From a virus (taxonomy: Duplodnaviria; Caudoviricetes), in IMG/VR virus record IMGVR_UViG_3300031951_000164, positions 1 to 60,514 of that record: a stretch of 60,514 bases of DNA. One strand, 5' to 3'. Shown here piece after piece: positions 9,641-30,220 of this stretch (positions within the stretch are counted from its first letter, which is position 1; each line of letters begins with the position of its first letter). The position numbers and the translations under genes are program-made. Under the pieces are notes generated by a model. The model had not been told where the DNA came from, made no database searches, and saw nothing but the letters and a program-made list of their open reading frames with translations.

Positions 9641-9666
9641 AATGAAAACTCAAATCACACAAGCAT

Positions 9667-9695
9667 ATTATACCTCATGATGAGGTGAAAGAAAA
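9667..9695 (-). promoter_or_regulatory. sigma70-type early promoter for the primase operon
   Basis: TTTTCT-17-TATAAT. Confidence 0.6.
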
Positions 9696-9701
9696 GCTGA
9701 A

Positions 9702-10016
9702 TCAGCAGTTCCAACGGCGAAGCGACATGGCTTTTCTGGTTGGTCTTCCTTTTTCATCTTTCATCGGACCCTTGACTCCACTCATTCTGGCGCAGAACGA
9801 CTTACGACGTTTGGCTGCTTTGCTGCCAGCTTTGAGTTTAGAAGGCGGAGTTGTAACAGCCGTGCTCAACTTGGATCCTGGATTCTTACGGCGATATGCC
9901 ATAACGCCTTTTCTTGTAAGACCAGCTCCAGACTCAGTTGATCTTTTATGACCTGCAGAGTCTGCTCCACGCTCAAGAACAAGTTCTTCTTTTATGAATT
10001 CTTTGAATGAGATCAT
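9702..10016 (-). CDS. basic putative internal head protein
   Basis: N-terminal MISFKEFIKEE capsid-targeting-like peptide; RRKSFCARM...RRWNC motif. Confidence 0.7.
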   Translation of the reverse strand: MISFKEFIKEELVLERGADSAGHKRSTESGAGLTRKGVMAYRRKNPGSKLSTAVTTPPSKLKAGSKAAKRRKSFCARMSGVKGPMKDEKGRPTRKAMSLRRWNC

Positions 10017-10027
10017 GCATTCCTCTT

Positions 10028-11233
10028 TTACCTTTCATCTATTTTTAAATTTAAAGTCCTCATCCTTCCCCCACTCATTCCCTTTGGTTTCGCTATTCTT
10101 GGTGGAGGACCGCTCCAATCAACTTTATCGACGTGTTGTATTGAAACCGCTTTTTTCCCAGCAGCAGATTTCACGATATATGATGCTGCATTGGGAGAAT
10201 GTTCTCCAAACTTAGCTCTGCCAGTTGCTGCTTCTTTTCGTAAGAAAGAATTAAATTCCGGATATTTTTTATGAATTCTTGAGCTGGCTTCTTGAGCTTT
10301 TTTCTTTAGAGATTCTAACTCTGAATCACTTTTGGCATCTCTCGCATTCTCTGAGTATCTTGAGATTTCTTTTGAGTGCTGCATAATTTCTGAGTGGATT
10401 CTCTTTTTCTCCTGCTGCGAAAGATTTGCATATTTTAGATGTTTTGCCAACATTTCATCTGCAGCGGCATGATGCATTGCATTACTTTCCTCTGGTCCGG
10501 CTGATGCTAGCTGAGAACCCGCTCCTTTCTTTAAAGAAATTTTTATTCCTCTCGCTTTTTTTGAATTTACATTTTCAATTGCAATGTCAGTTTTGGATGT
10601 AGCTCCTTTTGTTGCACCATATCTTTTCCACAGCTCAGAGACTTCTCCTCTTCCACCACCAGTTACTCTGGCTCTGTGTCTATTAGTAACAGCGTTCTTG
10701 AAATCTGGATGATTTGCAAATCCATGAACTGTATGAATGGCATTTTCTAGTTCTTCGTGATAAGATGCTTTGTGAGCTTCAGTCCTTCTTCCGCCCGTAA
10801 ATCCTTCTTGACTTATGTTGTTAAAATGCAGAGGGTGCTTTTTATCTTTCTTTATTCTTTCAAGCTCTCTCATCATTGCATCTTTGTCATGAGCAATTCC
10901 TATATCAGTCATATGATTCCAAATATGCACGTGCGCGTGTTCATCATTATAGGAAGCAGCTTTTCCAGAAGGTTTGTTTATTTTAGATAAAGGGACAGAA
11001 TGCCTTTCCCCTCTATTGCCAGAAGAGACTATTGCATAATGTTTCCCATCATGAACCTCATGTCCGTGTATTGTTAGAGGCGATCCAGCTTCCAAATCAC
11101 CGTGCGCAATTTTAAGAGTATGAGTTTCTTTTTGACCGATATATGGCTTTATGTATTTTTCTGCATGCCTTTGAGCGTCCGGTCCGGAACTTTTCATTAC
11201 TGCTTCTGAGATAAATTGTTTAAAATTATACAT
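10028..11233 (-). CDS. putative capsid-targeted PD-(D/E)xK-like nuclease
   Basis: MYNFKQFISEA N-terminus; TSKTDI...KISLKK motif; His-rich. Confidence 0.5.
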   Translation of the reverse strand: MYNFKQFISEAVMKSSGPDAQRHAEKYIKPYIGQKETHTLKIAHGDLEAGSPLTIHGHEVHDGKHYAIVSSGNRGERHSVPLSKINKPSGKAASYNDEHAHVHIWNHMTDIGIAHDKDAMMRELERIKKDKKHPLHFNNISQEGFTGGRRTEAHKASYHEELENAIHTVHGFANHPDFKNAVTNRHRARVTGGGRGEVSELWKRYGATKGATSKTDIAIENVNSKKARGIKISLKKGAGSQLASAGPEESNAMHHAAADEMLAKHLKYANLSQQEKKRIHSEIMQHSKEISRYSENARDAKSDSELESLKKKAQEASSRIHKKYPEFNSFLRKEAATGRAKFGEHSPNAASYIVKSAAGKKAVSIQHVDKVDWSGPPPRIAKPKGMSGGRMRTLNLKIDER

Positions 11234-11260
11234 TAGTAGAACTCTCTCCGCCTATTTTAC

Positions 11261-11267
11261 TATTTAT
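11261..11267 (-). promoter_or_regulatory. T4-type late promoter
   Basis: ATAAATA about 30 bp upstream of 11233. Confidence 0.55.
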
Positions 11268-12838
11268 TCATTTAACCAAATTAAACTTGCAGTGGCTCGA
11301 GATATCTGCGCACTACTTTTTATAGCAATACTTATTATGTTGTTTGGTGGACAGTTCAATGAAAGTTGTTCAAGGTCTATAATTGACGATCCATTAATAG
11401 GTAGCACATATGTTGCAACAGGTGCTTCAGATGATAAAGTATAAGTTCCATCTATAGTAGAATATGCAACTGCAGTTTGTGTGACATTATTCCATATGTG
11501 GATTCCACTAAACGTTGTTGGGTTATAAAAAACATAAATTTCGGCTGGATCTTGCCCCTGCATAGCAACGCTCATCTTTTTTGCATTAGTGCCATTCAGG
11601 TTAATTTTATTATTAAATATCAGCTGGCTGCGTATTGAAAGTAGGTGATGAGTTTGGTCTTGGGATAATGATGCCTTTGTGCCACTGCTAGCTGAGTTGG
11701 TATATTTTGATGTTCCAACAATACCTTCAATCGCACCCATCATCGATGCACCAATAACAGAAACGTTATTGCTTGTGCCCGCGCCAAGATTAGCTGCCAG
11801 ATATCCAATTTTAAGACTTGGATTATCCAAATGCGGAACAGTGTGTCTGTTTGAATAGTGATAATGGTGGAAGAATATCATGTCACCATTATTGGGATCT
11901 TCAATGGCAAATCTAATCTCACCAGCACCTAACCAGCGATAATTTATTTGGTAGATGTTAAGTTTATCTGGTTCTAATAATACACCAGATGGGTTAGTCG
12001 TATTTGCTGATCCATCTAATCTATCGAAGTTCCATTGATTTTGATATATCCACTCACCCGCATTGGCTATACCAGCCTGTCTTGAGTTCATTGATGCTAA
12101 TGCAGCTCCAGTAGAAGAAAAGCTAAATGTTCCATTCTTTGGTCCAAGAGAAGCAGAAAGAAAGAACACAGAGTTACCAACCTGATCTACAACATAACCT
12201 GGGTATCCGCCTGATCTGTTTGCGATTGCTGCGGCTGTTTGTTGAGCCGTGCCCGATGTTAATGGCACGGTATATGATACTCCATTTAAAGTGACGTTTC
12301 CAGTTTCTGATCCGCCAGCGCCAGTGGTTACATTAAGTTCTCGTATGTCTGCTTTTCCTCCATTCTGAATGAATATACCAAACTGTTCGCCATTATATCC
12401 TACAGTCAATGATTGCTCTTGAGCAAACAACCCTGCTCGGTGAGTTGTATTGGCGTGCGGAGTAGAAAATGCTGCAGTGAATCTACAAAGAGCTCCCTGA
12501 CCTGGGCGATATCTGATTAATTTTCTGCTTCGTAGAACGCCATATGATCCAGCAGAAGTTCCGCTTTCTACATTAAATACAATTTTTTTTGTATTTGCAA
12601 CGCCATTACCAGAAGAATAAATCTCAAAATCTCTATCAGGTAATCCATAGATTCCATCTAATTGAATTACTGGAGTTAATTGCGTTGCAAGAGGCTCACC
12701 GAATGCAGAGTATGCAGTGGCTCCTTTCATTTCAACTTCAAATGTTCCTCCAGAAGAAGTTACAGGAAATGGATTTGTCGTCGATACAACAACATTGTTG
12801 TTCTGTACATTTACATTCTTGTTATACAAATATGACAT
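11264..12838 (-). CDS. probable virion structural protein (beta-rich)
   Basis: 524 aa Gly/Ser/Thr/Asn-rich, RYRPGQG and WLGAG motifs, late region. Confidence 0.55.
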   Translation of the reverse strand: MSYLYNKNVNVQNNNVVVSTTNPFPVTSSGGTFEVEMKGATAYSAFGEPLATQLTPVIQLDGIYGLPDRDFEIYSSGNGVANTKKIVFNVESGTSAGSYGVLRSRKLIRYRPGQGALCRFTAAFSTPHANTTHRAGLFAQEQSLTVGYNGEQFGIFIQNGGKADIRELNVTTGAGGSETGNVTLNGVSYTVPLTSGTAQQTAAAIANRSGGYPGYVVDQVGNSVFFLSASLGPKNGTFSFSSTGAALASMNSRQAGIANAGEWIYQNQWNFDRLDGSANTTNPSGVLLEPDKLNIYQINYRWLGAGEIRFAIEDPNNGDMIFFHHYHYSNRHTVPHLDNPSLKIGYLAANLGAGTSNNVSVIGASMMGAIEGIVGTSKYTNSASSGTKASLSQDQTHHLLSIRSQLIFNNKINLNGTNAKKMSVAMQGQDPAEIYVFYNPTTFSGIHIWNNVTQTAVAYSTIDGTYTLSSEAPVATYVLPINGSSIIDLEQLSLNCPPNNIISIAIKSSAQISRATASLIWLNE

Positions 12839-13662
12839 TAGATAATTCTCCAGCCATCTCTAAAGATGAGATCGATTGCACCGTTGTTAAGTTGTAATAT
12901 TGCTCCGCCGACATCATTGTCTATTGTACCTAAAATAGTAATTGCATTGTTCTCGCAATTACCTGATTCGTCTTTTATGATTAAGTTTCTTCCTGACGTC
13001 GAGCTGGCTGGCAAAGTAATAGTAACAGGACCAGCATAGTTGACACCGATATAATAGTCGCCTGATTGCGCTATATATGTCGGCGACGTTACCAACGTTG
13101 TGTTGTATAATACTTCGTTGGTGTTTACGTCGTCCATGTAGAACATTCCGTTGTTCCAAGTCATATACTTGCCAGGACCAACAGAAGATGGTATGAAGTC
13201 CGACATGTCGCGAATCAGAACAGATCCGCCACCACCAGACCCCCATGCTAACGTAGAATATCTTTTCTTTATTTCTTCTATTTCTCTACGAATTGCTCTT
13301 AATTCTGTTTCTCGCAGAGGTTCCGTACCAGGAGTTTTAGACTTAGAAATGGCTTCTACAGACTTAGATACAAGATCTTTAGCAGTCGGCGGATCTGGAT
13401 CTATAGGAAACGGCGAAGGAGGCTGAGGAGGAGCGGCTTCTTCAAGAACAACTGGTTCTGGCTCTTTTTCTTCAACGATTTCTTCGACAACTTCTTCTAC
13501 TAGCTGTTGCTGAGTCGCGAACAGCATTGCATCAAGTTCTTCTTCGATGCGAATGGATTCTATTAATGCAGGATCAACTGGTTGACCCAGAGCGTGCATC
13601 ATTGATACGAGAAGTTTCTTTTCAGCTAAATTCTTCATATATGCACGGATTCGCTCTTCCAT
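12838..13662 (-). CDS. hypothetical virion-associated protein
   Basis: Glu/Pro-rich linker, GSGGGGSV, C-terminal DYYIGVN...TITLP...IIKDESG beta domain. Confidence 0.6.
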   Translation of the reverse strand: MEERIRAYMKNLAEKKLLVSMMHALGQPVDPALIESIRIEEELDAMLFATQQQLVEEVVEEIVEEKEPEPVVLEEAAPPQPPSPFPIDPDPPTAKDLVSKSVEAISKSKTPGTEPLRETELRAIRREIEEIKKRYSTLAWGSGGGGSVLIRDMSDFIPSSVGPGKYMTWNNGMFYMDDVNTNEVLYNTTLVTSPTYIAQSGDYYIGVNYAGPVTITLPASSTSGRNLIIKDESGNCENNAITILGTIDNDVGGAILQLNNGAIDLIFRDGWRII

Positions 13663-14020
13663 AGTTGCGAAGCATTATACCTGCCTCGCTGTTTGCTTCA
13701 TTCTCAAATGCGCTTCCTGTTTCTCCTGCCATCTCGACGCCTTCAAATCTACCGTCCATGTCTTGCTTGTAGTGTACAAGCTCATGAGCCAGAGTTCTCA
13801 GACAATCAGCAAGATGTCTCCCCCCAACGTTCAAATCGATTTTGTTACGCCCAGGATAGTACCCACCGAAGCTGGCATTTTCCTGAGCGACTTTCTTATC
13901 GTCGATAATATTAATGTGAGGAGGTTCGTCCAGACCTAAGTGTTTGCATGCATACGCCACAAAAGTATTGATCTTTTGGTCTCTTTCTTCTTCAGCCAGA
14001 TATTGCTTAAATGTCTTCAT
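13622..14020 (-). CDS. zincin-like metallopeptidase with capsid-targeting-like N-terminus
   Basis: RTLAHELVHYKQ (HExxH) plus ENEAN third ligand; MKTFKQYLAEE. Confidence 0.75.
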   Translation of the reverse strand: MKTFKQYLAEEERDQKINTFVAYACKHLGLDEPPHINIIDDKKVAQENASFGGYYPGRNKIDLNVGGRHLADCLRTLAHELVHYKQDMDGRFEGVEMAGETGSAFENEANSEAGIMLRNYGRANPCIYEEFS

Positions 14021-14409
14021 TTTAACAATTCGGAAAATTGCGCCAGCGCCCAGCTAACTATTGCTGCCGCACCAACAACGATCCAACGCCACTTATCTAA
14101 GTCTGCTATCTTCTTTCTTTCTTCTTCGTGTTGTTTCTTCATGTCTTCGCGCATTGCATGCATTTCATCCATGATCTTAGTTTCAACTTCTGTAATTTTA
14201 CTATACACGTCCTTTAAGTCGTGATTAGTTTCGTTTCTCCTATCCTCCATCATCTTCTGAACCTTGTCTAGTGTGTCATCGAACTTTTGATAGATGACAT
14301 TGAAGAATGAAATTTTCTCCTTCATTGCACTGACTTCGACTTCAAGTCTATTTAACTTGGAGTCGTACATACGGCGATCATAATCAGAATGGTTATTTTC
14401 AGTTGGCAT
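14017..14409 (-). CDS. coiled-coil protein with C-terminal transmembrane helix (lysis-associated?)
   Basis: long heptad region then KWRWIVVGAAAIVSWAL; adjacent to spanins. Confidence 0.6.
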   Translation of the reverse strand: MPTENNHSDYDRRMYDSKLNRLEVEVSAMKEKISFFNVIYQKFDDTLDKVQKMMEDRRNETNHDLKDVYSKITEVETKIMDEMHAMREDMKKQHEEERKKIADLDKWRWIVVGAAAIVSWALAQFSELLK

Positions 14410-14929
14410 TGGCAGACTCCACAATGGCGCTCTGCTCACGAATCCATTTCTGTAAAGATTTCAGCTGTTCTTTGGTTTCGTGGCAGGTTCCGTAGTTTTC
14501 GACGATTCCTCCGAGGGCTTCAGAGGTGTTAATTCCGCTGGGGGTTCCATCAGCAGCGGAGGTGGTGTCGGCATGTAAACCCTTTGCACTGGAGTTGTGG
14601 ATGTGCACCCAACCGCTAGGAAGATCACACACAGTATGAATAGGGATTTCGTCAATGACACTAACATTCCTTTCTCTCCATTTTGTTATATAAACTTTCT
14701 TTTCGACATACTCCGTTATGATTTGAATGTCTACTTTGTTCTTCTTGATCAGCAGCTCGTTGTACTTCTTTTCACTATCTGCGAGGAACTTAGATTTCTC
14801 GAGTTCATATTTATTCTCAGCATGCGCGTATCCCTTAACATACGAAAATCCAGCAACGGCTGCAACGAGAAGAGCCATTGCAAGGATCCTATACGGGAGT
14901 GGTACTACTGAGCCGAGAAATGGTATCAT
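14399..14929 (-). CDS. inner-membrane spanin (Rz-like)
   Basis: N-terminal TM, coiled coil, C-terminal NYGTC...QLKSLQKWI; contains a nested lipoprotein gene. Confidence 0.8.
   Translation of the reverse strand: MIPFLGSVVPLPYRILAMALLVAAVAGFSYVKGYAHAENKYELEKSKFLADSEKKYNELLIKKNKVDIQIITEYVEKKVYITKWRERNVSVIDEIPIHTVCDLPSGWVHIHNSSAKGLHADTTSAADGTPSGINTSEALGGIVENYGTCHETKEQLKSLQKWIREQSAIVESANAN
14461..14667 (-). CDS. outer-membrane spanin lipoprotein (Rz1-like), fully nested
   Basis: lipobox LAVGC, Pro-rich PTPPPLLMEPP, purine-rich SD. Confidence 0.8.
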   Translation of the reverse strand: MLVSLTKSLFILCVIFLAVGCTSTTPVQRVYMPTPPPLLMEPPAELTPLKPSEESSKTTEPATKPKNS

Positions 14930-15159
14930 TGTTTATCCTCAGGTTCCGTTTTTCCTTTTAAACCAAGGGCTGCTCCACCAGCGGCAAGCAGAGTTGACAG
15001 ACCAGTGCCATAAGCAATATAGTCTGTGGGTTTGTCCATGTAAAGACCAAGAAAAGCGAACACAATAAAACTTAATACAGACATGAACCAAATAATTCGA
15101 CCAACGTCAAGGCTTCTGTTATCCTTACCTGTGAATAGAGTTATCCATAGGCTTCTCAT
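14926..15159 (-). CDS. putative holin
   Basis: 77 aa, two TM segments, charged C-terminus, directly upstream of spanins. Confidence 0.6.
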   Translation of the reverse strand: MRSLWITLFTGKDNRSLDVGRIIWFMSVLSFIVFAFLGLYMDKPTDYIAYGTGLSTLLAAGGAALGLKGKTEPEDKQ

Positions 15160-15845
15160 ACTGGCTTCTTCCTCCTAAGCATGTTCATCTTTTTCTTTAG
15201 TTGCGCTGCATAATTCGTTGTCGGATCAGTAATCGTCGGAACAGCGCCGCCAGCAACAGAAACAGCAGGAGCTTCCTCTTTGTTTAGCCTTGCAGTTATT
15301 TTTCCCATAATTCTATCTTGTTGGTTTCTCTTAGTTCCAAAATATGGGTGCTTGCCGTATAACTGTTGGTTCTTTATAGAACCTTTAAGCGTTCTCAGCT
15401 GTCGCTCGCGCTTTTGCGATAATTCTTCATAAACGGAAGAAGATTCTGGTATTGTTCTGTTTCCAAATTTATTGTCTACGGCAGCTTTAAAATAAGATGT
15501 GCCGCTGAGTTTAGCCTTCAGCGACTTGGTTTTAGCCTCTGATGATTTTATTTGCTGTTTCAGCTTTTCTTTTCTTTGCCTTTCTTTTTTCACGCGATCA
15601 ACCGCACCTCCTGGTCTGGTTGCTGCCCTGTATCCCAGTGCCCCAGCTGCTGCACCTAATGCCAATGTCCCCAGCAATTCATTGAGCTTCTTTTTCGGTC
15701 TATCGTGCATTCCTGTTGGGGCTGTAGTCAACTCATGAGAAACGTGTGGCTCGCGCCGATGAGTTGCGGCGTGTCTGCTAGGATATTTCTTCCCAGATCC
15801 CAACCTTATTGACTGTTCTCTTAGTTCTCTAAAGCTCTTAGGCAT
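15156..15845 (-). CDS. basic modular putative internal head protein
   Basis: MPKSFRELREQ start; LNE, YEELS and KEEAP Glu sites. Confidence 0.6.
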   Translation of the reverse strand: MPKSFRELREQSIRLGSGKKYPSRHAATHRREPHVSHELTTAPTGMHDRPKKKLNELLGTLALGAAAGALGYRAATRPGGAVDRVKKERQRKEKLKQQIKSSEAKTKSLKAKLSGTSYFKAAVDNKFGNRTIPESSSVYEELSQKRERQLRTLKGSIKNQQLYGKHPYFGTKRNQQDRIMGKITARLNKEEAPAVSVAGGAVPTITDPTTNYAAQLKKKMNMLRRKKPV

Positions 15846-16216
15846 TTAACTATTTCCTCGTCTAGAGATATTTCTGATGACAGTATATCTACACCATCTA
15901 TTCCATATACTGCATCAGGCATAAAATTCAACAATATCAAAAAAGGTTTTAGCAACGGGTAGTGTTCTTCTTTTAGGTGAAAGAACAGCAATCTCGTGGC
16001 TCCTTCTGATCCGAACACATTATATACAATAACGATATGGTTCAGAATCAGTCTAGTATTCAACTCCGAATTGTTCAGATACTTTGTAAACAACTTCTTC
16101 AACAAATAGATTCGACTATAATCCTCATGAAATTCTGACATGACGCAATTTGGTGTATCATAACACTTAATTGCATACATCAGCAAGTTTTCATCATTTA
16201 GATTACCAAACATCAA
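15821..16216 (-). CDS. conserved T4-like phage protein of unknown function
   Basis: LNDENLLMYAIKCYDTPNC...RLILNHIVIVYNVFG motif. Confidence 0.75.
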   Translation of the reverse strand: MMFGNLNDENLLMYAIKCYDTPNCVMSEFHEDYSRIYLLKKLFTKYLNNSELNTRLILNHIVIVYNVFGSEGATRLLFFHLKEEHYPLLKPFLILLNFMPDAVYGIDGVDILSSEISLDEEIVKCLRALEN

Positions 16217-16581
16217 TCGTCAGCCGAATGTCTCACTCTCGTTAGGAAATCACTATCAGAAGACCCTTCAGTATATTCCAAAACGTCAATTCCACCTTGT
16301 ATTTCGATGATGTCTTCTTGTTGAAGAATCTGAGCAAACATGGAATATCCAACAGGCTCCTCGTCTATTACCACATACAGAAAGAGGTCGTCTTCGCCCT
16401 CTATTTTGTATATTGTGTCTTCATCAACACTCAGTCCGCCAGGAAACTGTATTTCGTGATCCGTGAAGATCGAATGCAGTATAGTTTCAATGGCGTCGAC
16501 TGAGCTAAAGTGTCTGTGAGAAAGCTCATCCAATTTTTCGTTTATGATTTCTATTGTAGCATAATCTACTTCTTCGTTCAT
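16213..16581 (-). CDS. acidic hypothetical protein
   Basis: 122 aa, ATGA-type overlaps with neighbours. Confidence 0.65.
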   Translation of the reverse strand: MNEEVDYATIEIINEKLDELSHRHFSSVDAIETILHSIFTDHEIQFPGGLSVDEDTIYKIEGEDDLFLYVVIDEEPVGYSMFAQILQQEDIIEIQGGIDVLEYTEGSSDSDFLTRVRHSADD

Positions 16582-18770
16582 ATTCCCCTCACTCCGCCTC
16601 TATTGGCGTCTAAACTAATTACAGGATCAATTTCTATTTTAGCAGCACGGCTACCAGTTGCAGTTTTCCCGTTGGCTTGATTTGTTCCCTGCTTGTCGAC
16701 TGCTTTGCGAATCACTTCACGAATAATATTTCTTGTTTCGCTGACAGTCTTGGCTTTGGTATCAGGATTCATTTTGCTAACGAGCTTCTCAACGCCAGCT
16801 TTCGGTTGCTGTATGGGAGCAGCTTCCGAGAGGTTTCTATACTTCCACTTGCCGTCTTCATGATCGGCAATCGCAAGCGTCTTGCCTGTCTCATGGTGAA
16901 TCATATGAAGGGAAACTTTCTTGCCCGTCTTCTTGGCTATGTTCGCCGCATGTCTGCCCGCATCTTGCGCACCCTTCTCGCCCGCGCCCATACGATCACC
17001 AGCCTTGTAGTGCCGCCCATCTACATGGATCTGAGTGTGATAGCCTTGATAATCACGGCTCTTGCTTCTCTCTTCATGTTCTTTGGCTCTTGACATAGCC
17101 ACATGATGAGGAACACCCTGCGCTCTCAGGTCTTTGTATACATCCTCACCAGTTGCTTCTTCCAACTTCGCCTTCGACTTCTTCTTGGTCACAAGCAATC
17201 CAGCTTTGTTGCGTTTTGCATTTCCACCAGCCTTCTTTATTCTTGCGATAAGCTGTTTGGTTGCATCCCTACCAACAGATTCTTTAACTGGATGCACTCT
17301 CTTCGCAATCACTCTAGCGATTTGTCTGTCCTTTTCTTTTTCATCATCAGAGAGACCGCCATACGCACCAGTCAACTTAGAGCGTCTTTCTTTTTGCTCT
17401 GGGCTTTGGTTTGTGCTGGTTAAAGCGTGGTGAGACCAACCGCGAGACTTCCCACCATAATCAGCCGGAGATCCATGAATGGCTTTTGATATGGTTTCGA
17501 TGTGCTCAGGATCGTGTGGGTTTCCGCCAGCCTTTTTGATTGCTCTGGCAGCACGCAATCCAGCAACTGCGGAAGAGCGAGTTGCACCAGCACCAAAATT
17601 AGTCTTTGGATCTACAGAAGGATCATGTGGACCATATGATGGATTTGCTGCATGACTTGCTGCAGTTATTTTATATGCGAGACCTTTGGGATTTGAAGAT
17701 TTCATTTCATCCATCTGGTCGGATTCTTCATTCACAGAATGAATGAACGACAGGTCTTTATGAACTTTATATCCAGCGTTTCTATAATGCTTCTCTGCCG
17801 TCTCTATAGCCTTTTGTTGACTTGATGCGTTTACGTTGACTCTTACGTCTTTCTTATCACCACTCGCTACATCACGATGAGATATTGTCAAGCCAACCTT
17901 ATATCTTTTTCTACCGACAGCTTCTTCCTTCATCGTATCGCAATCGCACTGACCAGGAGTGTCTTTCTTGTACCTCTTGGTCAGCTTCGTGGTTCCCCAC
18001 TCTCTGTCCTTTGGTTCATTGCTTTCTTCTTTTACATGAATCATTCTTTTCTTCTTCCCCTTGGTGTGGTCAATTATGGAGAGATGTTTTCCAGACTTCA
18101 CCTCTCCGCTTGAAACTTCCCAATGACCATCCTTGATTTTTTGCATAACATGTTTCATGGAATGAGCTGGAAGACCGTAGTTCTCTTTTTCTTCCTTAAT
18201 TTCTTTAGCACTCCAATTGGTACTTCCAAGACCGCTTGAATTCATAAGTTCAGCTGCATGTTGAGAACTTTTAGCTTTTTTGATAATATTTGCAACAAGC
18301 CTTTCTCTTTCGGAATTGCTTCCGTTGTGCTTATATGCATGTTGCGCGGGGCTTATATTGACCCCAGCATGACTGGCAAAAACATGACCTTTGGGGGTTC
18401 GGTATATATGATGAACATTTCCTAAAGAGTCTTTTAATGTTATATGAAGTTTCTCAACTTCTTCCTTAACGTATGCGTGTACGGATATTTTGTCGGCGTC
18501 ATATCCCTTACTCTTAAGGCGTCTTCGATGTTCCCCTGCATGAGCAATTGCTTCTTCATATGAATCGTGTTTGGAAACATCACGCCCGTTGTTCAGAACT
18601 CGGTAATGTGAGACATCGTGTTTGGTTCTATGGGAAAGCGGAATTTCTCTTTCCTCATTGGCAGGAACACAATTCGGAACCTTTCTTCCATTCTTCATCT
18701 TCATGCCGACAGCTGTATAGCCTTTCCAGCATGCTTTCTTCAGACCACCAGTGGGTTCTTTGACTGCCAT
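16578..18770 (-). CDS. His/Lys-rich modular putative internal head polyprotein
   Basis: CWKGY..VPNCVP and REWGT..TPGQ motifs, RyR-like YGGLSDDEKEKDR, modules separated by xxEE linkers. Confidence 0.65.
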   Translation of the reverse strand: MAVKEPTGGLKKACWKGYTAVGMKMKNGRKVPNCVPANEEREIPLSHRTKHDVSHYRVLNNGRDVSKHDSYEEAIAHAGEHRRRLKSKGYDADKISVHAYVKEEVEKLHITLKDSLGNVHHIYRTPKGHVFASHAGVNISPAQHAYKHNGSNSERERLVANIIKKAKSSQHAAELMNSSGLGSTNWSAKEIKEEKENYGLPAHSMKHVMQKIKDGHWEVSSGEVKSGKHLSIIDHTKGKKKRMIHVKEESNEPKDREWGTTKLTKRYKKDTPGQCDCDTMKEEAVGRKRYKVGLTISHRDVASGDKKDVRVNVNASSQQKAIETAEKHYRNAGYKVHKDLSFIHSVNEESDQMDEMKSSNPKGLAYKITAASHAANPSYGPHDPSVDPKTNFGAGATRSSAVAGLRAARAIKKAGGNPHDPEHIETISKAIHGSPADYGGKSRGWSHHALTSTNQSPEQKERRSKLTGAYGGLSDDEKEKDRQIARVIAKRVHPVKESVGRDATKQLIARIKKAGGNAKRNKAGLLVTKKKSKAKLEEATGEDVYKDLRAQGVPHHVAMSRAKEHEERSKSRDYQGYHTQIHVDGRHYKAGDRMGAGEKGAQDAGRHAANIAKKTGKKVSLHMIHHETGKTLAIADHEDGKWKYRNLSEAAPIQQPKAGVEKLVSKMNPDTKAKTVSETRNIIREVIRKAVDKQGTNQANGKTATGSRAAKIEIDPVISLDANRGGVRGI

Positions 18771-18771
18771 C

Positions 18772-21024
18772 TTATGCTCCTTTTGACACCGACTTGATCA
18801 TCCAGCCCAGTTTCTTGTGAGCATCGATCTTGTCTTGGAGGAAGTTTGAGAGACCAATCTCACCAGCAGCCTCTGCTACTTTGTAGCCATTCGTCAGACC
18901 AGCAAGAATCTTGCTATTGTCAGCAAGCAGAGAACCGAACATCTCGGCTGGAGTTTGTACTGACGAATCGTCAATAGAAGTAGATCCCTTGAGTTCGGTC
19001 AGCGAACGCGGAGCATACTCGCCCAGAGCACGAATCTCTTCGGCGATTGGATCAATCGTATCGAACAGCTGCTCATAGACATCGCCAAAAAACTTGTGAT
19101 ACTCAGGGAAGTTGGCTCCTTCGACATTCCAGTGGAACGTGTGCGCCTTGAAGTACATATGGAACGCATCAGCAAGGATAGCCTTCATCGCAGCAGAAAG
19201 AGCTGGTGTTGCTTCTTCTGCCAGATAGCTTTCTTTCATCATCTTCGACTTCTTACGAAGAAGTTTGAAGTCATGAGCATCAATCTTGCCATTCTCGTTG
19301 GCATCAATTCTACGCTGCCTGCCGAGCAGACGCTCGGCGATATGGCTGGTTTCTTCTTCCATCTTATCAGACTTAGAGGGTATGCTTACGCCAGCCCATT
19401 TAGCTTGTCTAGCTCTTCTCTGTTCAATTCTTTCTTGGGCATCTTTAAATGCTTTGGCTAGTTTTGGGTCAGCACGAAGCATCCAGCCTGGTTTGTGGTT
19501 CCCTTTGCCCATATATGGGGCTTCGTCAATCTGCTCGACTTCTTCATTTGTTTTCTTTTTGCCAATCCTACTAGCACGCTCGGCTCTGAGCATTGCAAGC
19601 TGATCGTGCGTTACTCTATGAGGCATATTTGGGTTTTTCTGTTTAAATTCTTCCCAACCAGCTATCCTCTTTTCAATTTCAGCATTTGTCATAGATGCAA
19701 TATGTTTTGCAGCATCGTATTTTTTGCCGTAGTTGCCACCTTCATCAATCTGCTCGACTTCTTCTTTCTTTAACTTTTTATCCCAAGCCTTATCCGTCTT
19801 GATATTATATTCTTTTCCACCAGGACCAATATCTGCAATTTTATAACCTATAGGCTCATTTGTTTTGACTACAACTTTTTTCTTAGCTTCTTCTGGAAGG
19901 TTCGGTTTGGGTTGCTTATTCGCTAAGTTGCCCCGTATTCTTCCCTTCAGAGAAGTATTGGACGCTTTCGTTGTCTTGCCAGTCTTAGCAACAACCTGAG
20001 CTTTTTTTCTATTTTCTAATGAAGAATGATTGTATTCGCCGCCTGTGTCACCACGCTTATCAGACGTTGCTCTCATTCCACCAGTTGATCTAGGGCTACG
20101 GTCCCAGTCGTGGTCGGGGTCAGGTTTGGCAGCACTTGAACTTCTCCACTTGGCTTTCTCTGCAATCTGCTCGGCTTCTTCTGGAAGATGCGAACCATAT
20201 CCTCTGGAGTTCTTCAGATCTGCTATTCTAGCTCTTGCATCAGCTTTTCTGTCTCCAGTCTGCTTCGGACCAGTGTCTGCTTTTTGAATCTTTCTTCCAG
20301 CAGCAACGCGATCTGCTACTGCACGCTGAGAAAGTGGAGCGGCTCCTGGCTTATGTCCACCGCCAGCTTTAAATTGTAGTGACTTTGCTTTCATTCTGTT
20401 TACCATACCAACCATGCCACGCTCATCAATCTGCTGAAATTCTTCGTACATATATCTGTCTAATATATCCAAAGCATGTTTTGGAATCTTTTGTCCTTTA
20501 TGAGAATTTTTACCTTCGTCCGCACTAGCTCCAGCGGCACGGAGATCCATTCCCTTTTGCTTTGCCTGCTTAAGAGCCTCTTCTGCTTTGTCTGCGTGAT
20601 GCTTCGGTACCTCGATTTCACCAGCCTCCTCTCTCGACCCGCCATAATTTGCTTCGACGGTGCCATGCATGAATTCATGAAGATGCGGACGGGCATTTAT
20701 TTTCACATGCTCTTCTTGGGCTTCAAAAATATTGCGCCCTTCGTCAAGTTTTTCCCACTTGTCTGTATATACATGTTTTTCACCAGTCGCATTATGAGTG
20801 AGAACAGCCTCATGTCCTTCTGGGAATTTACCTGAATCCTCTAATTTGTTTATATGGGCAGCAGCTTCGGCTTTTGATGCAAAACTTCCTAGCTTTTTCT
20901 TTCTGTCGTCCTTCTCGGGATGAACTGCATGAAGAGTGTAGCTTTCGCTCAATGTTTGCTCCATCACCTTTCTCGCGGCTTCAGCAACTGCCTTGTTGAT
21001 TTTGTCGTTGAATGGATTGTTCAT
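18772..21024 (-). CDS. modular putative internal head polyprotein with EF-hand and C-terminal Dps ferritin domain
   Basis: KAHTFHWNVEG..YHKFF..DPIAEEIR..HKKLGWM Dps motifs in 18772-19212; DANENGKIDAHDF EF-hand; EEVEQIDE linkers. Confidence 0.8.
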   Translation of the reverse strand: MNNPFNDKINKAVAEAARKVMEQTLSESYTLHAVHPEKDDRKKKLGSFASKAEAAAHINKLEDSGKFPEGHEAVLTHNATGEKHVYTDKWEKLDEGRNIFEAQEEHVKINARPHLHEFMHGTVEANYGGSREEAGEIEVPKHHADKAEEALKQAKQKGMDLRAAGASADEGKNSHKGQKIPKHALDILDRYMYEEFQQIDERGMVGMVNRMKAKSLQFKAGGGHKPGAAPLSQRAVADRVAAGRKIQKADTGPKQTGDRKADARARIADLKNSRGYGSHLPEEAEQIAEKAKWRSSSAAKPDPDHDWDRSPRSTGGMRATSDKRGDTGGEYNHSSLENRKKAQVVAKTGKTTKASNTSLKGRIRGNLANKQPKPNLPEEAKKKVVVKTNEPIGYKIADIGPGGKEYNIKTDKAWDKKLKKEEVEQIDEGGNYGKKYDAAKHIASMTNAEIEKRIAGWEEFKQKNPNMPHRVTHDQLAMLRAERASRIGKKKTNEEVEQIDEAPYMGKGNHKPGWMLRADPKLAKAFKDAQERIEQRRARQAKWAGVSIPSKSDKMEEETSHIAERLLGRQRRIDANENGKIDAHDFKLLRKKSKMMKESYLAEEATPALSAAMKAILADAFHMYFKAHTFHWNVEGANFPEYHKFFGDVYEQLFDTIDPIAEEIRALGEYAPRSLTELKGSTSIDDSSVQTPAEMFGSLLADNSKILAGLTNGYKVAEAAGEIGLSNFLQDKIDAHKKLGWMIKSVSKGA
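19522..20445 (-). repeat. four dispersed 24 bp linker repeats encoding EE(V/A/F)(E/Q)QI(D/A)E
   Basis: copies at 19522-19545, 19741-19764, 20158-20181, 20422-20445; consensus GAAGAAGTCGAGCAGATTGAYGAA. Confidence 0.85.
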
Positions 21025-22058
21025 TTAGATGTCTCCGTTATTTTTCTGAAGTTAGAGAAAGATTTCTTTTCGGCAACTGAGTATGCGGTGAGTCCAATCC
21101 CACCAGAAGGAACAGCACCTATTCTGGAGTCAAAGTATTTACCAGGATTCACGGCTGGCTTTTTGTGGACTTTTTTGCCCTTGCTTGTGTCTGCCTCGGC
21201 TTCTTTGGCTTCGGCGGCGACGACTCGCTCGGCTCTGTTGTCGGAAGACTTGGGGATTCCTCCTTCTCTCGGGTCGTTTTGGATCGCTCCTTTCTTAATG
21301 GCTCCTCTAGCGGCTCTGCCCAAAACAGCTTTTTCAGTAACTGTAGAATCTTCATTGCTTTCTCCGATGATTTCCTCAAAGAGTTGATTGATGTTTGTTG
21401 TGTCTATTTTGCCGCTCTCGACCAGCCATTTGATTGATGATGGATTGGTTGGAGCTGATGAGATGAAATTGGAAACTCCCTCAAAGAGTTCCTCAGTCCA
21501 GCCGATGATTTCCTTTCTGACCTTTTCATTCGCACGCTTGAAGTCGCGTGAGTTATCGAACAGGAAAAAGCTAGAGAAATCCTCAGAGAACGTTTTCATG
21601 TTCTTGATTGCTGAATTATACTTCATCAGTCTGGTTTGCTCAGAGAAGGTTTTGGCTCCGCTAGAAATGCGTACATCATTCCTTCTCTTTGACTCAGAGT
21701 TTTCCGTATAGACGAACACCATGGAAGTATCATATCCCATGTGCTCAAGAACTGTACGGCAAACGTTGATTTTGTTGTAGTCGTCTGCATTGCCATTGAT
21801 GAAGATGGAACGAAATGTGTCCAGTTCTCTCAATGAAGATTTTTCGACGATTGTCTTGTGTAATTTGTCGAGGCTAATCTCAGCCATTCCTGACTCTTGT
21901 AGCCCCGACTTGATAAGAATGTCTTTTCCACTGCCAGGTCCTCCCACAAGAAAGAGAGCCTTGAAGTGTTTCTGCGTGGACTCTAAAGACAATGCGCTTT
22001 TTGGCGCATGATTGATTTGTTTGAGCTGTCGTTCTTTTGTTTTCATATATTCCCACAC
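21021..22058 (-). CDS. P-loop kinase (zeta-toxin/AAA_33-like) with basic C-terminal tail
   Basis: ALFLVGGPGSGKD Walker A, MVFVYT..SKRRNDVR lid. Confidence 0.7.
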   Translation of the reverse strand: MWEYMKTKERQLKQINHAPKSALSLESTQKHFKALFLVGGPGSGKDILIKSGLQESGMAEISLDKLHKTIVEKSSLRELDTFRSIFINGNADDYNKINVCRTVLEHMGYDTSMVFVYTENSESKRRNDVRISSGAKTFSEQTRLMKYNSAIKNMKTFSEDFSSFFLFDNSRDFKRANEKVRKEIIGWTEELFEGVSNFISSAPTNPSSIKWLVESGKIDTTNINQLFEEIIGESNEDSTVTEKAVLGRAARGAIKKGAIQNDPREGGIPKSSDNRAERVVAAEAKEAEADTSKGKKVHKKPAVNPGKYFDSRIGAVPSGGIGLTAYSVAEKKSFSNFRKITETSK

Positions 22059-22076
22059 TTTGGGGTTATTTTGGAG

Positions 22077-22084
22077 TATTTATA
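22077..22084 (-). promoter_or_regulatory. T4-type late promoter
   Basis: perfect TATAAATA 19 bp upstream of 22058. Confidence 0.75.
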
Positions 22085-23575
22085 TTATTTTCGTTTTATC
22101 ACTATTTCCCCGGAAGCCAATCCACGCTTAAATTTATTCATATGCTCTAGGGCTTCCCCACGAGTAAAGTTCGGTCCAAGGTGTCTATGAAACTCTTCAA
22201 TGTTACTATCACGAGCCGCAGTTCTCATTGCAGTTCCTGAGAATCCATGCGATCTATTTTCGTCTGTCGGATAATGAACGTGAATCTCGTGGAATTTCTC
22301 CCCGTTCATTTCTTTTATCTTTCCAGATTCTAGAGATGACTTCAGACGTTCGGCGAAATCTTTTCTGTCGTGACCGAAATGCAAATGTAGAATTCTTCGA
22401 CCTGTTTTTGGCATGCTGTGAAATGCATGAGCGACTACTTCTCCAGCTGAAGGGGAAACGCGAAATTTGGCTTTTCCACCCCACTGCCGTTCTCCAATTT
22501 TCTCTCTTTGGGAATCTGAGTATAGGTCTGTTTTCCCAGAAAGACCAACTACGATCTTTCCTTTTTTAGACCTTGACATAGAACCACCAATATCTTCATA
22601 ATGTCCTTGGTGAGTTATCGGAGAAGCGCCCATATATGTTACATGAACGTGATGTTCCTTTTCTGTTGCACTCTCGGATACTGTATCTTTTACTCCCAAC
22701 GTAGTTCTAAGATGCTCCAGAGCAGCAGTATGATCCATCTTTTTATTGCCAGCAACCGCTGCCTTGAATCTATCATATACTTCTTGATGGCGTTCTTTCA
22801 ATATATGACGTTTAATAAGATCTGATACTCCATGGAAAGAATGAATTTTATTTTCGTCGGCTTCACTACCAAAGATCCTGTGTGTAACTTCTGATGGTTC
22901 CTTGGAAGATTTTTCAGAGGGATCAGTTCTTGATGTTGCTCCATTTGCTATTGAGAATTTGTACCTATCCAGTCCAGCAGTATTTAAAAGAATTTTATGG
23001 TGCGCGCCTTTAATTCCTTTTTTAGTGTCTTCCCAATCTGAACTTTTTACGAATTTTTCTGCTTCGGTCGGCTCATCATTCTCGTACTTAGAGGCAACAA
23101 AATCCATTTGGTGAATATGTCCAGTTTCATTATGTCGCATAAGAAGAGTAGATTCGGTTCCATGTCTCTTTTTACCAACAACAGTAAACTTGCCGAATTT
23201 GCTTCCCTCCCTTGCATGATCATAGAGAGCATCTTTATGTTCTGCAGGAATCAGCATGTCAAAATCACCAACTTCCTTTTTATGGTGTTGGAATTCTTGA
23301 TGACTCAATGAACTGTCCATGAAATGTCTAGTCGAGCCAACATAGGTGGACTTGTTGTTTATTGCTTTGCCATGGATGCCAAACAGATGTCCGCCAGTTG
23401 CTTGGCGAAACGAATGATGAAGCTGGTGAAGAGCTTCAGGAAGATCTCTTTGAAGGGATTCTCTAATCTTCGGCGTTACCTTAAAAGGAGCTGGAGAGAC
23501 TTGTTCTCCTGATTCCGTTTTGGCTTTTACGTTTCCGCCTTCTCGTAAGAAAAACTTAAATGCCTTAAATGACAC
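22085..23575 (-). CDS. fusion of Pol-beta-like nucleotidyltransferase and HIGH-type cytidylyltransferase-like domain
   Basis: YVGST..GDFD..QMDF; PITHQGH, GHDR, SGTAMRTAA; probable GTG start at 23575 with GAGG SD (MSFKAFKFFLREGG). Confidence 0.65.
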   Translation of the reverse strand: MSFKAFKFFLREGGNVKAKTESGEQVSPAPFKVTPKIRESLQRDLPEALHQLHHSFRQATGGHLFGIHGKAINNKSTYVGSTRHFMDSSLSHQEFQHHKKEVGDFDMLIPAEHKDALYDHAREGSKFGKFTVVGKKRHGTESTLLMRHNETGHIHQMDFVASKYENDEPTEAEKFVKSSDWEDTKKGIKGAHHKILLNTAGLDRYKFSIANGATSRTDPSEKSSKEPSEVTHRIFGSEADENKIHSFHGVSDLIKRHILKERHQEVYDRFKAAVAGNKKMDHTAALEHLRTTLGVKDTVSESATEKEHHVHVTYMGASPITHQGHYEDIGGSMSRSKKGKIVVGLSGKTDLYSDSQREKIGERQWGGKAKFRVSPSAGEVVAHAFHSMPKTGRRILHLHFGHDRKDFAERLKSSLESGKIKEMNGEKFHEIHVHYPTDENRSHGFSGTAMRTAARDSNIEEFHRHLGPNFTRGEALEHMNKFKRGLASGEIVIKRK

Positions 23576-23576
23576 G

Positions 23577-24548
23577 TTACCCTCTCCCATTCTGGGGGAC
23601 GTTTCTACTTTTAAACGCTTCTTTATTGGATGGATCAGCCTTATATGCTCTGAAGGTATCGGAAGTAACCTTAAATCTGGGAGCATTTGGGTTTCTGTTG
23701 GATGGATGGACTACAATCCCCTCGGAACCAGATCCCCATTTTGGTGTCAAATTCATTCTTTTAACGTGAGTATCAACTTTATCAGAAACAGATTTCTTTA
23801 TTTTGTTGAACTTTTCTATTTCAGCCATCTTGGCTTCTTTGTTTTTGTTTGTCGTTCTGCTACCAAGAAGTTCGTGGTCCAAACGATGGAATTGTTCTCT
23901 TTCGTCTGAGACGTCTACATGCATGTGTTTATGTGGAATCTTGTCATCATCAAAGTTAATTTCGTCATTGGAGGCGAATTTCTTTAAATCCTCAACATTG
24001 TGATCTCTGTTTTCTGGTAGCTTTGTATGAACAACATATTTTCCTACTGATCCCATATGAGAAGGATCATAAGAAGTTCCCACGAATTTAATCTCGTTGG
24101 CTCTTTCTTCGGATTGCCTGCCGAAAGGGCGATAGAACATTTCTCCTCTGAGTTTTACTTCTTGTCCGGTTCTATTGTGGTGGTGTTGAAGGTAATGTTG
24201 AAGACCTTCGTTTTTAGCTAGGGTATCATGAACGTGCCCAAACGCCATGGCAGAAGTTAGATCCACTGGCTTATTGGTCTCATTGGCTCTTCGAATGGCT
24301 CTATTGTGAAAATCTTGTGAGCTTCTCATTTTTTCGGAGCCAGAACCAGAGCTTTGAGTATAAAACCCGTGCTCATCCCAACCCATCATATGGGTCATTC
24401 CATCGGTCTTTTCAGTTATATCGTGGAGATGAACTTTCCCATCACCAGTAAGAGCGCCAAATTGATTATGGTCCATTGTTGTGATATGAGGAAGACCCTG
24501 CCTAATTCCAGCCTCAGAAAGGATTCTTTTAATTTTATCGAGTCTCAC
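23577..24548 (-). CDS. ATP-dependent ligase/capping-superfamily nucleotidyltransferase (RNA-ligase-like)
   Basis: motif I TEKTDG, III RGEMF, IV SEGIVV, V RFKV. Confidence 0.6.
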   Translation of the reverse strand: MRLDKIKRILSEAGIRQGLPHITTMDHNQFGALTGDGKVHLHDITEKTDGMTHMMGWDEHGFYTQSSGSGSEKMRSSQDFHNRAIRRANETNKPVDLTSAMAFGHVHDTLAKNEGLQHYLQHHHNRTGQEVKLRGEMFYRPFGRQSEERANEIKFVGTSYDPSHMGSVGKYVVHTKLPENRDHNVEDLKKFASNDEINFDDDKIPHKHMHVDVSDEREQFHRLDHELLGSRTTNKNKEAKMAEIEKFNKIKKSVSDKVDTHVKRMNLTPKWGSGSEGIVVHPSNRNPNAPRFKVTSDTFRAYKADPSNKEAFKSRNVPQNGRG

Positions 24549-24581
24549 AAGAATCAGCCTCCAAACGATATGATATTCTCT

Positions 24582-24588
24582 TATTTAG
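24582..24588 (-). promoter_or_regulatory. T4-type late promoter variant
   Basis: CTAAATA overlapping the gp41 stop, upstream of the cargo operon. Confidence 0.55.
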
Positions 24589-25985: not shown

Positions 25986-26364
25986 TTGGTTTCTGTTCCT
26001 TTCTCTCTTTGTCATACTCAATGGTTTGCCAGAAAATTGACAGAAGAATGTTTCCCACGGTTTTTAGGAACTTCTTATCTTGATAGAAGTCTTTCCTGAG
26101 CTTGTCAGTAAACTGGATCACCTCAATATTATACGTTGCATCTGCCGTGCCGTCAACGTTTTCGTCGCCAATTTTTATAGTGTCATAGCAGTACACAACT
26201 CCAGCATATCTGCCTTTCCGAATGCGAATTGGAAGAGTCTGAGATTTTTCGACAGAAACGTCAATCGCATATTCGTAGAAGTCATCAGGGGCATAGTATT
26301 TGTTCCTGTATGCTATACCCAGCTTCTCAATTTTACTCTGTATCCACTTCATCATCTTCGTCAT
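25906..26364 (-). CDS. hypothetical protein in the T4 gp40 position
   Basis: between uvsX and 41; IRIRKGRYAGVVYCY..VGNIL. Confidence 0.55.
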   Translation of the reverse strand: MTKMMKWIQSKIEKLGIAYRNKYYAPDDFYEYAIDVSVEKSQTLPIRIRKGRYAGVVYCYDTIKIGDENVDGTADATYNIEVIQFTDKLRKDFYQDKKFLKTVGNILLSIFWQTIEYDKERKEQKPNDEHREDYIEEPVPKRTVRSKDSAVH

Positions 26365-30035: not shown

Positions 30036-30220
30036 CGTCGTTTTTTGTTTTTGATTTCCGATGCGATTTTCTTTTTGTCAGCCAACTCGCCATTGACATA
30101 GATCTGATCGAGGATCATTCCATATCTGTTCTTACCAACAACAAGACTGTGTCCGTTGAACTCTTTGATCTTGTAGCCGTATTCTAGAAACAGATCTTTC
30201 AAATCATTAAGACAGTGCAT
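30032..30220 (-). CDS. hypothetical protein
   Basis: 62 aa, TAATG coupling. Confidence 0.6.
   Translation of the reverse strand: MHCLNDLKDLFLEYGYKIKEFNGHSLVVGKNRYGMILDQIYVNGELADKKKIASEIKNKKRR

Follow-up and report, generated by a model that had tools for sequence, protein, structure and literature searches.

T4-type leader peptides on enzymes encoded between gp61 and gp41 of a Kyanoviridae-like phage point to probable cargo targeting to the capsid

The 60,514-nucleotide stretch analyzed here (IMG/VR record IMGVR_UViG_3300031951_000164, positions 1 to 60,514; hereafter the window) is a phage genome record in the form of one 60.5-kb contig, and between its primase and helicase genes lies a block of 16 genes, some of which begin with a short, shared leader peptide. 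We conclude, at a probability of roughly 70%, that these leaders are capsid-targeting sequences of the T4 type and that the phage probably carries ready-made enzymes in its capsid, a reading built on the motif, its statistics, its conservation, its position at domain borders, the head machinery, and the folds of the cargo, and extended to function by analogy with T4. An initial annotation made from the DNA letters had proposed that a late block of enzymes bears peptides like those of the T4 internal proteins. That proposal stands with respect to the leader residues, the orthologues, the domain borders, and the head genes, and it falls short for the kinase, the Dps fusion, and a 730-residue protein, which have no canonical leader.

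All large open reading frames (ORFs) of the window lie on the minus strand, which is the strand of every window feature given below. The phage is T4-like and Kyanoviridae-like: its major capsid protein is 59% identical to cyanomyovirus ones, and the window holds both a T4-type replication set (gp43, gp44/62, gp45, uvsX, gp41, gp61, gp46/47, uvsW, and uvsY) and a T4-type head module (portal, three small ORFs, a gp68-like protein, gp21 protease, gp22 scaffold, and gp23). The block, at 9702–24548, is the exact interval between primase gp61 (8549–9640) and helicase gp41 (24585–26021). Described at first as a leader-bearing enzyme block, it has a leader on 6 of its 16 genes and possibly on a seventh, the other genes having none. 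Because leaderless structural and membrane genes stand among them, the block is a mixed interval rather than a pure enzyme operon, and its remaining genes are structural, membrane-associated, or without assignment.

All nine peptides quoted in the initial annotation were found where it had placed them, on the minus strand. Within the block, MISFKEFIKEE (start at 10016), MYNFKQFISEA (11233), MKTFKQYLAEE (14020), and MPKSFRELREQ (15845) open their proteins; genes O497 (start at 23575) and P323 (24548) begin with GTG, a GGAG-type ribosome site precedes each start by 5 to 8 nucleotides (nt), and O497 starts one base after the P323 stop. The head module contributes MLTFSQFLSEA (57663) and MKKFSDIREQ (58605). 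To avoid circularity, the test pattern, M..[FY]..[FY][IL].E, was derived from T4 IPII and IPIII (NC_000866), both of which begin with MKTYQEFIAE followed by A (the N terminus of IPI is MKTFKEF), and 1379 ORFs from the non-coding strands of the window and 80 related loci served as decoys. This strict pattern was matched by 4 of 78 window genes, namely, A104, B401, E132, and the gp68 homologue (starts 10016, 11233, 14020, and 57663), and by none of the 1379 decoys; 0.005 was expected from composition. A slightly looser pattern added O497 and gave 5 of 78 genes versus 2 of 1379 decoys. The core [FY]..[FY][IL].E occurs eight times in 18,778 residues, four times at residue 4 and once at the GTG start of O497, and most other window genes have no leader. 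Across 21,656 starts examined, window included, the 80 related loci yielded 39 further strict matches, all on the helicase strand and all with an ATG start.

A passage of a T4 review assigns targeting mainly to residues 4 and 7 of the leader and processing to residues 8 and 10 (PMC9026906). The window leaders match the T4 capsid-targeting sequence (CTS) at residues 4, 7, 8, and 10. They are 10 to 13 residues long and amphipathic, and in AlphaFold2 (AF2) models of P323 and B401 the leader is a separate short N-terminal helix of low confidence placed before a confident domain. The likeness to the T4 system (IPI, IPII, IPIII, and Alt, cut by gp21) covers the leader of about 10 residues, with aromatics at positions 4 and 7, I or L at 8, and Glu at 10; a conserved leader on unrelated, mostly basic cargo; and the presence of gp21, gp22, and gp23 with a homologous cut site. 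Of the six block proteins with a leader, five are basic (isoelectric point [pI], 9.0 to 11.4), E132 being the acidic exception, and the gp68 homologue has a pI of 12.0; seven block proteins that lack any leader-like motif have pI values of 4.05 to 8.0.

Hundreds of orthologues retain the leader despite variation in the cargo, and across the window and the 80 loci the same leader stands on unrelated cargo: ligase-like proteins, nucleotidyltransferases (NTases), a nuclease, peptidase-like and DUF6321 proteins, a kinase, and a HAD protein. Strict T4-type leaders head 62 of the 119 P323 homologues listed. When P323 homologues were anchored on the conserved mature start (S/A/G)IRQGLPH, which 112 of them have, [L/I/V]-x-E was found 0 to 2 residues before that start in 109, the residue two places upstream of Glu being L in 60, I in 48, and V in 1. 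Leader length in this family runs from 4 to 28 residues, 10 being the commonest (51 homologues), with the [L/I]-x-E border fixed to the mature start; in the window P323, MRLDKIKRILSE followed by AGIRQGLPH reads as a worn copy of the leader with its cut site in register. For I229, a leader ending in x-E and followed by QSI is present in 15 of 16 homologues, several of them fully T4-type (e.g., MSKTFKQFVKE then QSI); E132 has a strict leader in 8 of 8 homologues of related loci, and B401 has [LI]-x-E within the first 30 residues in 46 of 49. The orthologues rescue the weak leaders at 24548 (P323) and 15845 (I229). The leader of h167 (58605) stays equivocal, because its Glu is Lys in the closest relative, locus L085.

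The same border recurs inside fused proteins. The domains of O497 occur alone, each with its own leader (MLRFKQFILE then GGNI.., MLKFSDFIIE then QED..SHMGH), and also fused behind a P323-like ligase, where [hydrophobic]-x-E followed by GGN is retained at the junction. Across 149 O497 representatives, hydrophobic-x-E precedes 55 of 78 GGN-type domain starts, and at some fused junctions a whole internal leader is found (SLKEFFFSLLE then GGN, GFKRFILE then GGN). Since the motif is kept at junctions where no translation starts, a start-codon or mRNA artefact cannot explain it, and its retention there argues that the system would also work as a polyprotein split in the head.

The enzyme labels of the initial annotation (ligase-like NTase, NTase fusion, kinase, Dps, peptidase, and nuclease) all hold at the level of fold or motif. 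P323 (23577–24548; leader MRLDKIKRILSE then A) was modeled by AF2 with a predicted local distance difference test (pLDDT) score of 90.6, leader residues 4 to 16 scoring <50. All 50 of the 50 Foldseek matches listed were ligases or capping enzymes (best E value, 2.3e-3), and the best structural match in VIA was the Naegleria RNA ligase (Z 9.9; root mean square deviation, 3.5 over 181 residues), with T4 Rnl2 at Z 8.8 and T4 Rnl1 at Z 8.6. Residues E46, K47, D49, G50, E276, and G277 are invariant (K47, D49, and G50 in 40 sequences). Judged from the model, P323 has the adenylyltransferase fold of an RNA-ligase-like covalent nucleotidyltransferase with motif I KxDG, for which lysyl-AMP formation and end joining are predicted. 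Membership of P323 in DUF6267 was considered and rejected, as hhalign gave a probability of 0.9% against a 9-member alignment and no Pfam match was obtained, and P323 belongs to a separate family. Relatives such as locus L017 have a leader-bearing DUF6267 protein at the position of P323.

O497 (22085–23575; leader MSFKAFKFFLRE then GGN) combines a candidate Pol-beta-type NTase-like N domain with a putative cytidylyltransferase-like HxGH C domain, as judged from family and motifs, and its family has 508 representatives at E≤1e-3. In the N domain, G80, S81, G103, D104, D106, and D158 are invariant in 24 sequences, and Atlas leads to NTP_transf_2 and Pol-beta palm clusters (0.92 to 0.93). For the N domain, no Pfam match, to Pol-beta or otherwise, was found in any of 24 family members, and a PDB search with the O497 profile gave no match; the candidate Pol-beta-type assignment draws only on the invariant G-S, D-x-D, and D signature and on the Atlas lead. 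The C domain matches the cytidyltransferase phrog_3041 (6.4e-6) and, weakly, PPAT (E 0.039); its motif is THQGH in the window and SHMGH in relatives, and Pfam CTP_transf_like was matched in 1 of 24 members only. Searches of the PDB were of no use, whether made with the single sequences of P323, O497, and B401 or with profiles of DUF6267, B401, and O497.

B401 (10028–11233; leader MYNFKQFISE then A) has a Tudor/SH3-like domain and a restriction-endonuclease fold like that of MspI and HinP1I. Its AF2 model (pLDDT 91.7) matched MspI in Foldseek (E 7.2e-4), and VIA returned MspI at Z 10.0 over 219 residues and HinP1I at Z 9.6 and 9.4, the next match being 7.6; by this model, B401 shares a PD-(D/E)xK-type fold with them. 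Residues K214, D216, S233, K235, and Q241 are invariant, D216, S233, and K235 being candidates for the catalytic carboxylate and (S/Q)-x-K. E132 (13622–14020; leader MKTFKQYLAE then E) is a small HExxH metallopeptidase-like protein with weak matches to Tox-MPTase3 and phrog_87. A104 (9702–10016; leader MISFKEFIKE then E; pI 11.4) is a DUF6321 protein (PF19846, 74.4 bits). The DUF6321 domain (..ARH.C....YW.C..W) stands alone behind the leader in the window (9702–9900) and is C-terminal in large multidomain proteins of loci L047, L077, L003, and L026. I229 (15156–15845), with leader MPKSFRELRE then QSI as supported by the leaders of its homologues, is basic (pI 10.6) and has one hydrophobic segment.

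Three further proteins are less certain candidates for cargo. N345 (21021–22058) is a P-loop kinase (GGPGSGKD) whose AAA_33 and Zeta_toxin matches lie below the Pfam cutoffs. It has no canonical leader and carries ALSLE followed by S just before the domain; homologues with N-terminal leaders are present in loci L033, L034, L035, L037, L075, and L011, and L017 has GLKLE then S at the same position, inside a fusion. The C-terminal peptide KKSFSNFRKITE that the initial annotation had pointed out in this protein is present and is kept only in L017. The C terminus AEKKSFSNFRKITETSK (21021–21075) is leader-like and overlaps the start of the Dps-fusion gene, its conservation again being limited to L017; it may be left over from a fusion or, as reported for T4 Alt, mark a site of C-terminal processing. 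M750 (18772–21024) ends in a Dps/ferritin domain (PF00210, 71.7 bits against a cutoff of 24.5; residues 611 to 745), which is preceded by SYLAEE then A and by a 600-residue basic, low-complexity N-terminal part with EE[VFA][EQ]QI[DA]E motifs. L730 (16578–18770; phrog_9737) has no leader and consists of an N-terminal Cys module (CWKGY..VPNCVP) and a long basic region (net charge, +48; pI 9.8). The module, of about 25 residues (CW.GY....G.K.K.G..VPNCVP; 16578–16700), lies mid-protein or C-terminally in large NTase-kinase proteins of relatives and follows DLSE then KVKEPTGG in L029. It also occurs in L011, L045, L004, L003, L047, L077, L041, and the Melnitz locus L083, as well as in L029, and in L045 it stands directly after a leader (MKPFKDFFEAKGPCWPGY).

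The head module encodes the counterparts of the T4 machinery. The gp68-like prohead core protein (57388–57663; phrog_3503), whose gene adjoins gp21, starts with the leader MLTFSQFLSE then A, which is retained in L085 to L088 and L090, and over its C-terminal 31 residues it shares 48% identity with T4 gp68 (E 0.001). The genes for gp23, gp22 scaffold, and gp21 prohead protease (54171–57385) were assigned by phrog matches (phrog_138 at 1.4e-147, with gp22 matching phrog_237 at 1e-82 and gp21 matching phrog_207 at 3.5e-76). The sequence GSILNE of the window gp23 (ILNE52, then T) aligns with GSFLTE65 of T4 (then A); T4 gp23 is cut after Glu65 (FLTE65). Between portal and gp68 lie h167 (MKKFSDIRE then Q, equivocal) and h343 (58102–59645 for the pair, assigned by N termini and motifs); h343 begins with MSFTKFAQE then K, resembles T4 gp67 weakly (E 0.037), and contains EEVEQMTE and EEVEQIAE. 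The motif EE[VFA][EQ]QI[DA]E is thus shared by M750, h343 (two copies, one with M for I), and the nearest relative, L017; its copies have no flanking homology, its end is I-x-E, and it may be an internal cut or docking site. In the form EE[VF][EQ]Q[IM].E the motif is lineage-specific, with three copies in M750 (18772–21024), two in h343 (58614–59645), two in L017, and no other occurrence in 1.98 million six-frame residues of 81 sequences.

Late promoters had been reported at 24582, 22077, and 11261. T4-type late-promoter-like sites are present at the latter two positions, upstream of N345 (TATAAATA, 22077–22084) and upstream of B401 (AATAAATA, 11261–11268); position 24582 reads CTAAATAA and gives no match. 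The NATAAATA sequence occurs six times, always on the minus strand and never on the plus strand. Such sites stand upstream of N345 and B401, and the other leader genes have none of their own.

Cultured phages have the same interval. Downstream of gp41, Methylophilales phage Melnitz-2 has genes that begin with, among others, MQGFKTFLSE, MKKFSEIIE (an HxGH NTase), and MKNFKNHIAE. The gp41-gp61 interval of cyanophage S-SM1 encodes GC71 (DUF6267-like), the cytidyltransferase GC190 (MKKFSAFLNE), a 473-amino-acid protein, and a 162-amino-acid protein (MLSFKELQE). Passages of Sullivan et al. 2010 report GC190 in purified S-SM1 virions and flag the genes for the 473- and 162-amino-acid proteins with proteomic data (PMC3037559). 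The three virion-flagged genes are adjacent, and two of them start with MKKFSAFLNE and MLSFKELQE. The part of the S-CREM2 study cited here lists a cytidylyltransferase and two hypothetical proteins encoded beside it in the virion proteome and states that kinases and cytidyltransferases are often detected in cyanophage virions (PMC10665884). No targeting leader or loading mechanism is named in these passages of the two papers (PMC3037559, PMC10665884). A BLAST search of the window NTase against S-SM1 proteins returned no match at E≤0.01. In the literature searched, nothing was in print on leaders in Kyanoviridae-like phages or cyanophages, and no paper dealt with DUF6267, DUF6321, or DUF7207.

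If the leaders act as they do in T4, each would dock its protein onto the gp22/gp67/gp68 scaffolding core during prohead building, and the gp21-type prohead protease would cut after [L/I]-x-E and free the mature protein within the shell, where it would stay with the packaged DNA and exit with it at infection. The presumed cargo would be P323, O497, B401, E132, A104, and I229 and, less surely, N345, M750, and L730; in relatives, the same enzymes joined in larger polypeptides would be split in the head as a polyprotein. That the proteins are injected and have an early counter-defense role before phage gene expression, as first suggested, is a plausible hypothesis. What the cargo might do is a more tentative matter: our leading guess, though less likely than not, is that RNA or DNA breaks are healed and sealed and that host DNA is attacked. 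Similarly speculative, and to our minds possible rather than probable, is the full picture of a head-loaded toolkit (RNA-ligase-like sealer, two NTases, kinase, restriction-type nuclease, and Dps), partly delivered as cut polyproteins, that would be injected for end repair of cleaved tRNA or DNA and for host-DNA attack before phage expression, the leader being a portable address by which marine T4-like phages would swap injected effectors and the reason for the recurrence of enzymes in cyanophage virion proteomes.

Several observations weigh against capsid targeting or limit its reach. Taken alone, MRLDKIKRILSEA (P323, 24548) is not above chance, as its pattern class is found in 6 of 78 genes versus 17 of 1379 decoys, and the same is true of MPKSFRELREQ (I229, 15845) and MKKFSDIREQ (h167, 58605), which share a class found in 2 of 78 genes versus 11 of 1379 decoys; h167 has, in addition, its Glu replaced by Lys in L085. 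A canonical N-terminal leader is lacking in N345, M750, and L730. The [L/I]-x-E motif is not depleted inside the mature cargo (observed/expected ratio [O/E], 0 to 2.3, with controls equally scattered), and there is therefore no sign of selection against internal cuts. Only two of the three promoter claims hold, and late timing would draw on these two sites and on the T4 analogy. In S-SM1, the GC71 copy as annotated has no leader, and in the passages cited T4-GC71 (DUF6267-like) stands without a proteomics flag (PMC3037559), while the S-CREM2 authors, in the part drawn on here, warn of possible purification carry-over of such enzymes (PMC10665884). A nuclease cargo would lie beside the phage's own genome, which calls for an explanation. 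Finally, docking, cutting, retention, ejection, and cellular role are all transferred to this phage from T4 by analogy.

Among other accounts of the leaders, the one we regard as unlikely rather than negligible is that the leaders bring the proteins into the prohead core but the proteins serve assembly only, providing core mass or charge balance as fragments of gp22, gp67, and gp68 do, and are degraded or expelled before or during DNA packaging, so that nothing functional is injected. One leader does stand on the gp68 core homologue; [LI]-x-E is enriched about twofold in M750, h343, and gp22, and L730 and M750 are long, low-complexity proteins, all of which would suit such a role. However, mere filler would hardly be expected to fold confidently and to keep its catalytic motifs without variation in >100 homologues, as enzymes of the cargo do, and proteins of the same class have been found in mature cyanophage virions. 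Less probable still, in our estimate, the leader could be a pro-peptide that silences potentially harmful enzymes (nuclease, ligase, and NTases) in the cytoplasm until cleavage or directs them elsewhere, making them late enzymes of the infected cell, acting on phage DNA or RNA for instance, and not capsid cargo. The window encodes a Tet/JBP-type dioxygenase, glycosyltransferases, and a dCMP deaminase, so that DNA-modifying chemistry does occur, and the published virion detections could be carry-over; yet the only [L/I]-x-E protease known in this phage type acts inside the prohead (from T4 biology), the same leader is found on a prohead-core protein, and the match to T4 residues 4, 7, 8, and 10 is exact.

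We give very little weight to the idea that the shared start does no sorting and is either an amphipathic helix arisen by chance or a feature of the nucleotide sequence or of translation initiation (5' coding ends rich in A/T and weak in structure). In its favor, K, F, I, N, and E have A/T-rich codons, short motifs are prone to recur, and the decoy rate is not exceeded by the two loosest pattern classes, but the strict form is absent from all decoys, the motif persists at internal fused junctions, and the border is fixed to the mature start across the full spread of leader lengths while most other window genes go without a leader. Capsid targeting of the T4 type therefore remains the reading we prefer.

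Compared with known systems, the window differs from T4 in that the mature parts have no sequence similarity to the T4 internal proteins and the cargo consists of nucleic-acid and nucleotide enzymes of 100 to 500 residues, although Alt provides a T4 precedent for enzyme cargo. The genes lie between gp41 and gp61 and not at the ip loci, the leaders recur at internal domain junctions of fused relatives in a polyprotein-like layout, and the window system is known from sequence alone. Relative to the T4 CTS, the novelty lies in other classes of cargo, in another phage family, and in a motif that is used again at polyprotein junctions. In the giant phages phiKZ, 201phi2-1, and SPN3US, according to passages of two papers, a gp21-related protease cuts many head proteins after Glu, several cut sites may lie in one propeptide, and enzymes such as the virion RNA polymerase are packed and ejected (PMC9026906, PMC5694885). 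Their propeptides are mostly >100 residues long and have another motif, whereas the window leaders are T4-like and of T4 length. The virion cytidylyltransferases and kinases of S-SM1 and S-CREM2 resemble the window proteins in gp41-gp61 neighborhood and enzyme class, and an S-SM1 protein has a strict leader, but the window NTase is only a class-level relative of the S-SM1 cytidylyltransferase. A further likeness is to RNA repair by T4 Pnkp/Rnl1 and bacterial Pnkp/Hen1, in that an RNA-ligase-fold enzyme occurs with a P-loop kinase and, in relatives, a HAD phosphatase; P323 aligns with T4 Rnl1, T4 Rnl2, Trl1-LIG, and the Pnkp ligase domain at Z 6.6 to 8.8. These repair systems differ in having no detectable sequence similarity to the window proteins, and the T4 enzymes are early and cytoplasmic, not head cargo.

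Should the leaders function as their T4 counterparts do, marine T4-like phages, which include cyanophages and relatives infecting abundant heterotrophs, would have in the gp41-gp61 interval a cassette of injected enzymes. This would supply a mechanism for the presence of cytidylyltransferases and kinases in purified cyanophage virions, where contamination could not be excluded, and would add ligases, NTases, and a restriction-type nuclease to the small inhibitors (IPI*) and Alt known as phage effectors of the first minute. It would also provide a simple sequence rule for predicting the head cargo of metagenomic phages, and a T4 tag readable at internal junctions would be relevant to T4-like heads as protein-delivery vehicles.

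The remaining genes of the block have no leader. C524 and D274 (11264–13662), in the block but not cargo, were assigned by phrog matches (virion structural protein phrog_1645, 3.8e-25, and tail-fiber phrog_972), C524 probably being a virion structural protein and D274 tail-fiber-like. F140, G176, and H77 (14017–15159) are coiled-coil or membrane proteins with holin- and spanin-like matches (phrog_689, phrog_4952, and phrog_8821; DUF7201). J131 and the acidic K122 (15821–16581) follow; J131 belongs to DUF7207 (PF23837, 123 bits) and is the cyanophage core gene T4-GC198, 41% identical to S-SM1 GC198. Neither megablast of the whole block nor tblastn of P323 found a match among 50,697 phage records, and a B401 search of phage records matched P-RSM6 only. 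Counts of sigma-70-like promoters (38 versus 30.2 expected) and terminators (21 versus 13.4 expected) in 9000–26100 were not informative.

The window contains no GGCC, against 98.4 expected from trinucleotides, and CCGG is depleted fourfold (17 versus 67.4), other 4-base palindromes having an O/E of 0.79 to 1.01; GGCC is also absent from 14 related loci. A link between the MspI-like nuclease B401 and this avoidance was considered and is not supported. Related loci commonly show such avoidance whether or not the portion covered encodes a B401 homologue, and host restriction is therefore the simpler reading; L064, which encodes a partial B401 homologue, shows no avoidance of CCGG or GGCC. Five other genes of the window specify a Tet/JBP-type 2OG-Fe dioxygenase (PF12851, 82 bits), a GT2 glycosyltransferase, a protein with an Anp1-like glycosyltransferase match, a dCMP deaminase, and a dNMP kinase, the coordinates listed for these five genes being 38219–39550, 30220–30972, 40302–41099, 33326–33811, and 39624–40283. 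As a set, these genes suggest that cytosines of the phage DNA are hypermodified; the window showed no C5-methyltransferase.

Also encoded are Hsp20, peptide deformylase, a CbbQ/NirQ-type AAA protein, and ThyX (34600–35058, 46881–47480, 41583–42782, and 7869–8564), auxiliary genes typical of marine T4-like phages. In L017 (1230–3796), the gp41 helicase is split into two ORFs (1230–1868 and 2579–3796), with an opposite-strand ORF of 215 amino acids between the halves and an extra N-terminal stretch on the second half, which looks like an inserted mobile element or intein.

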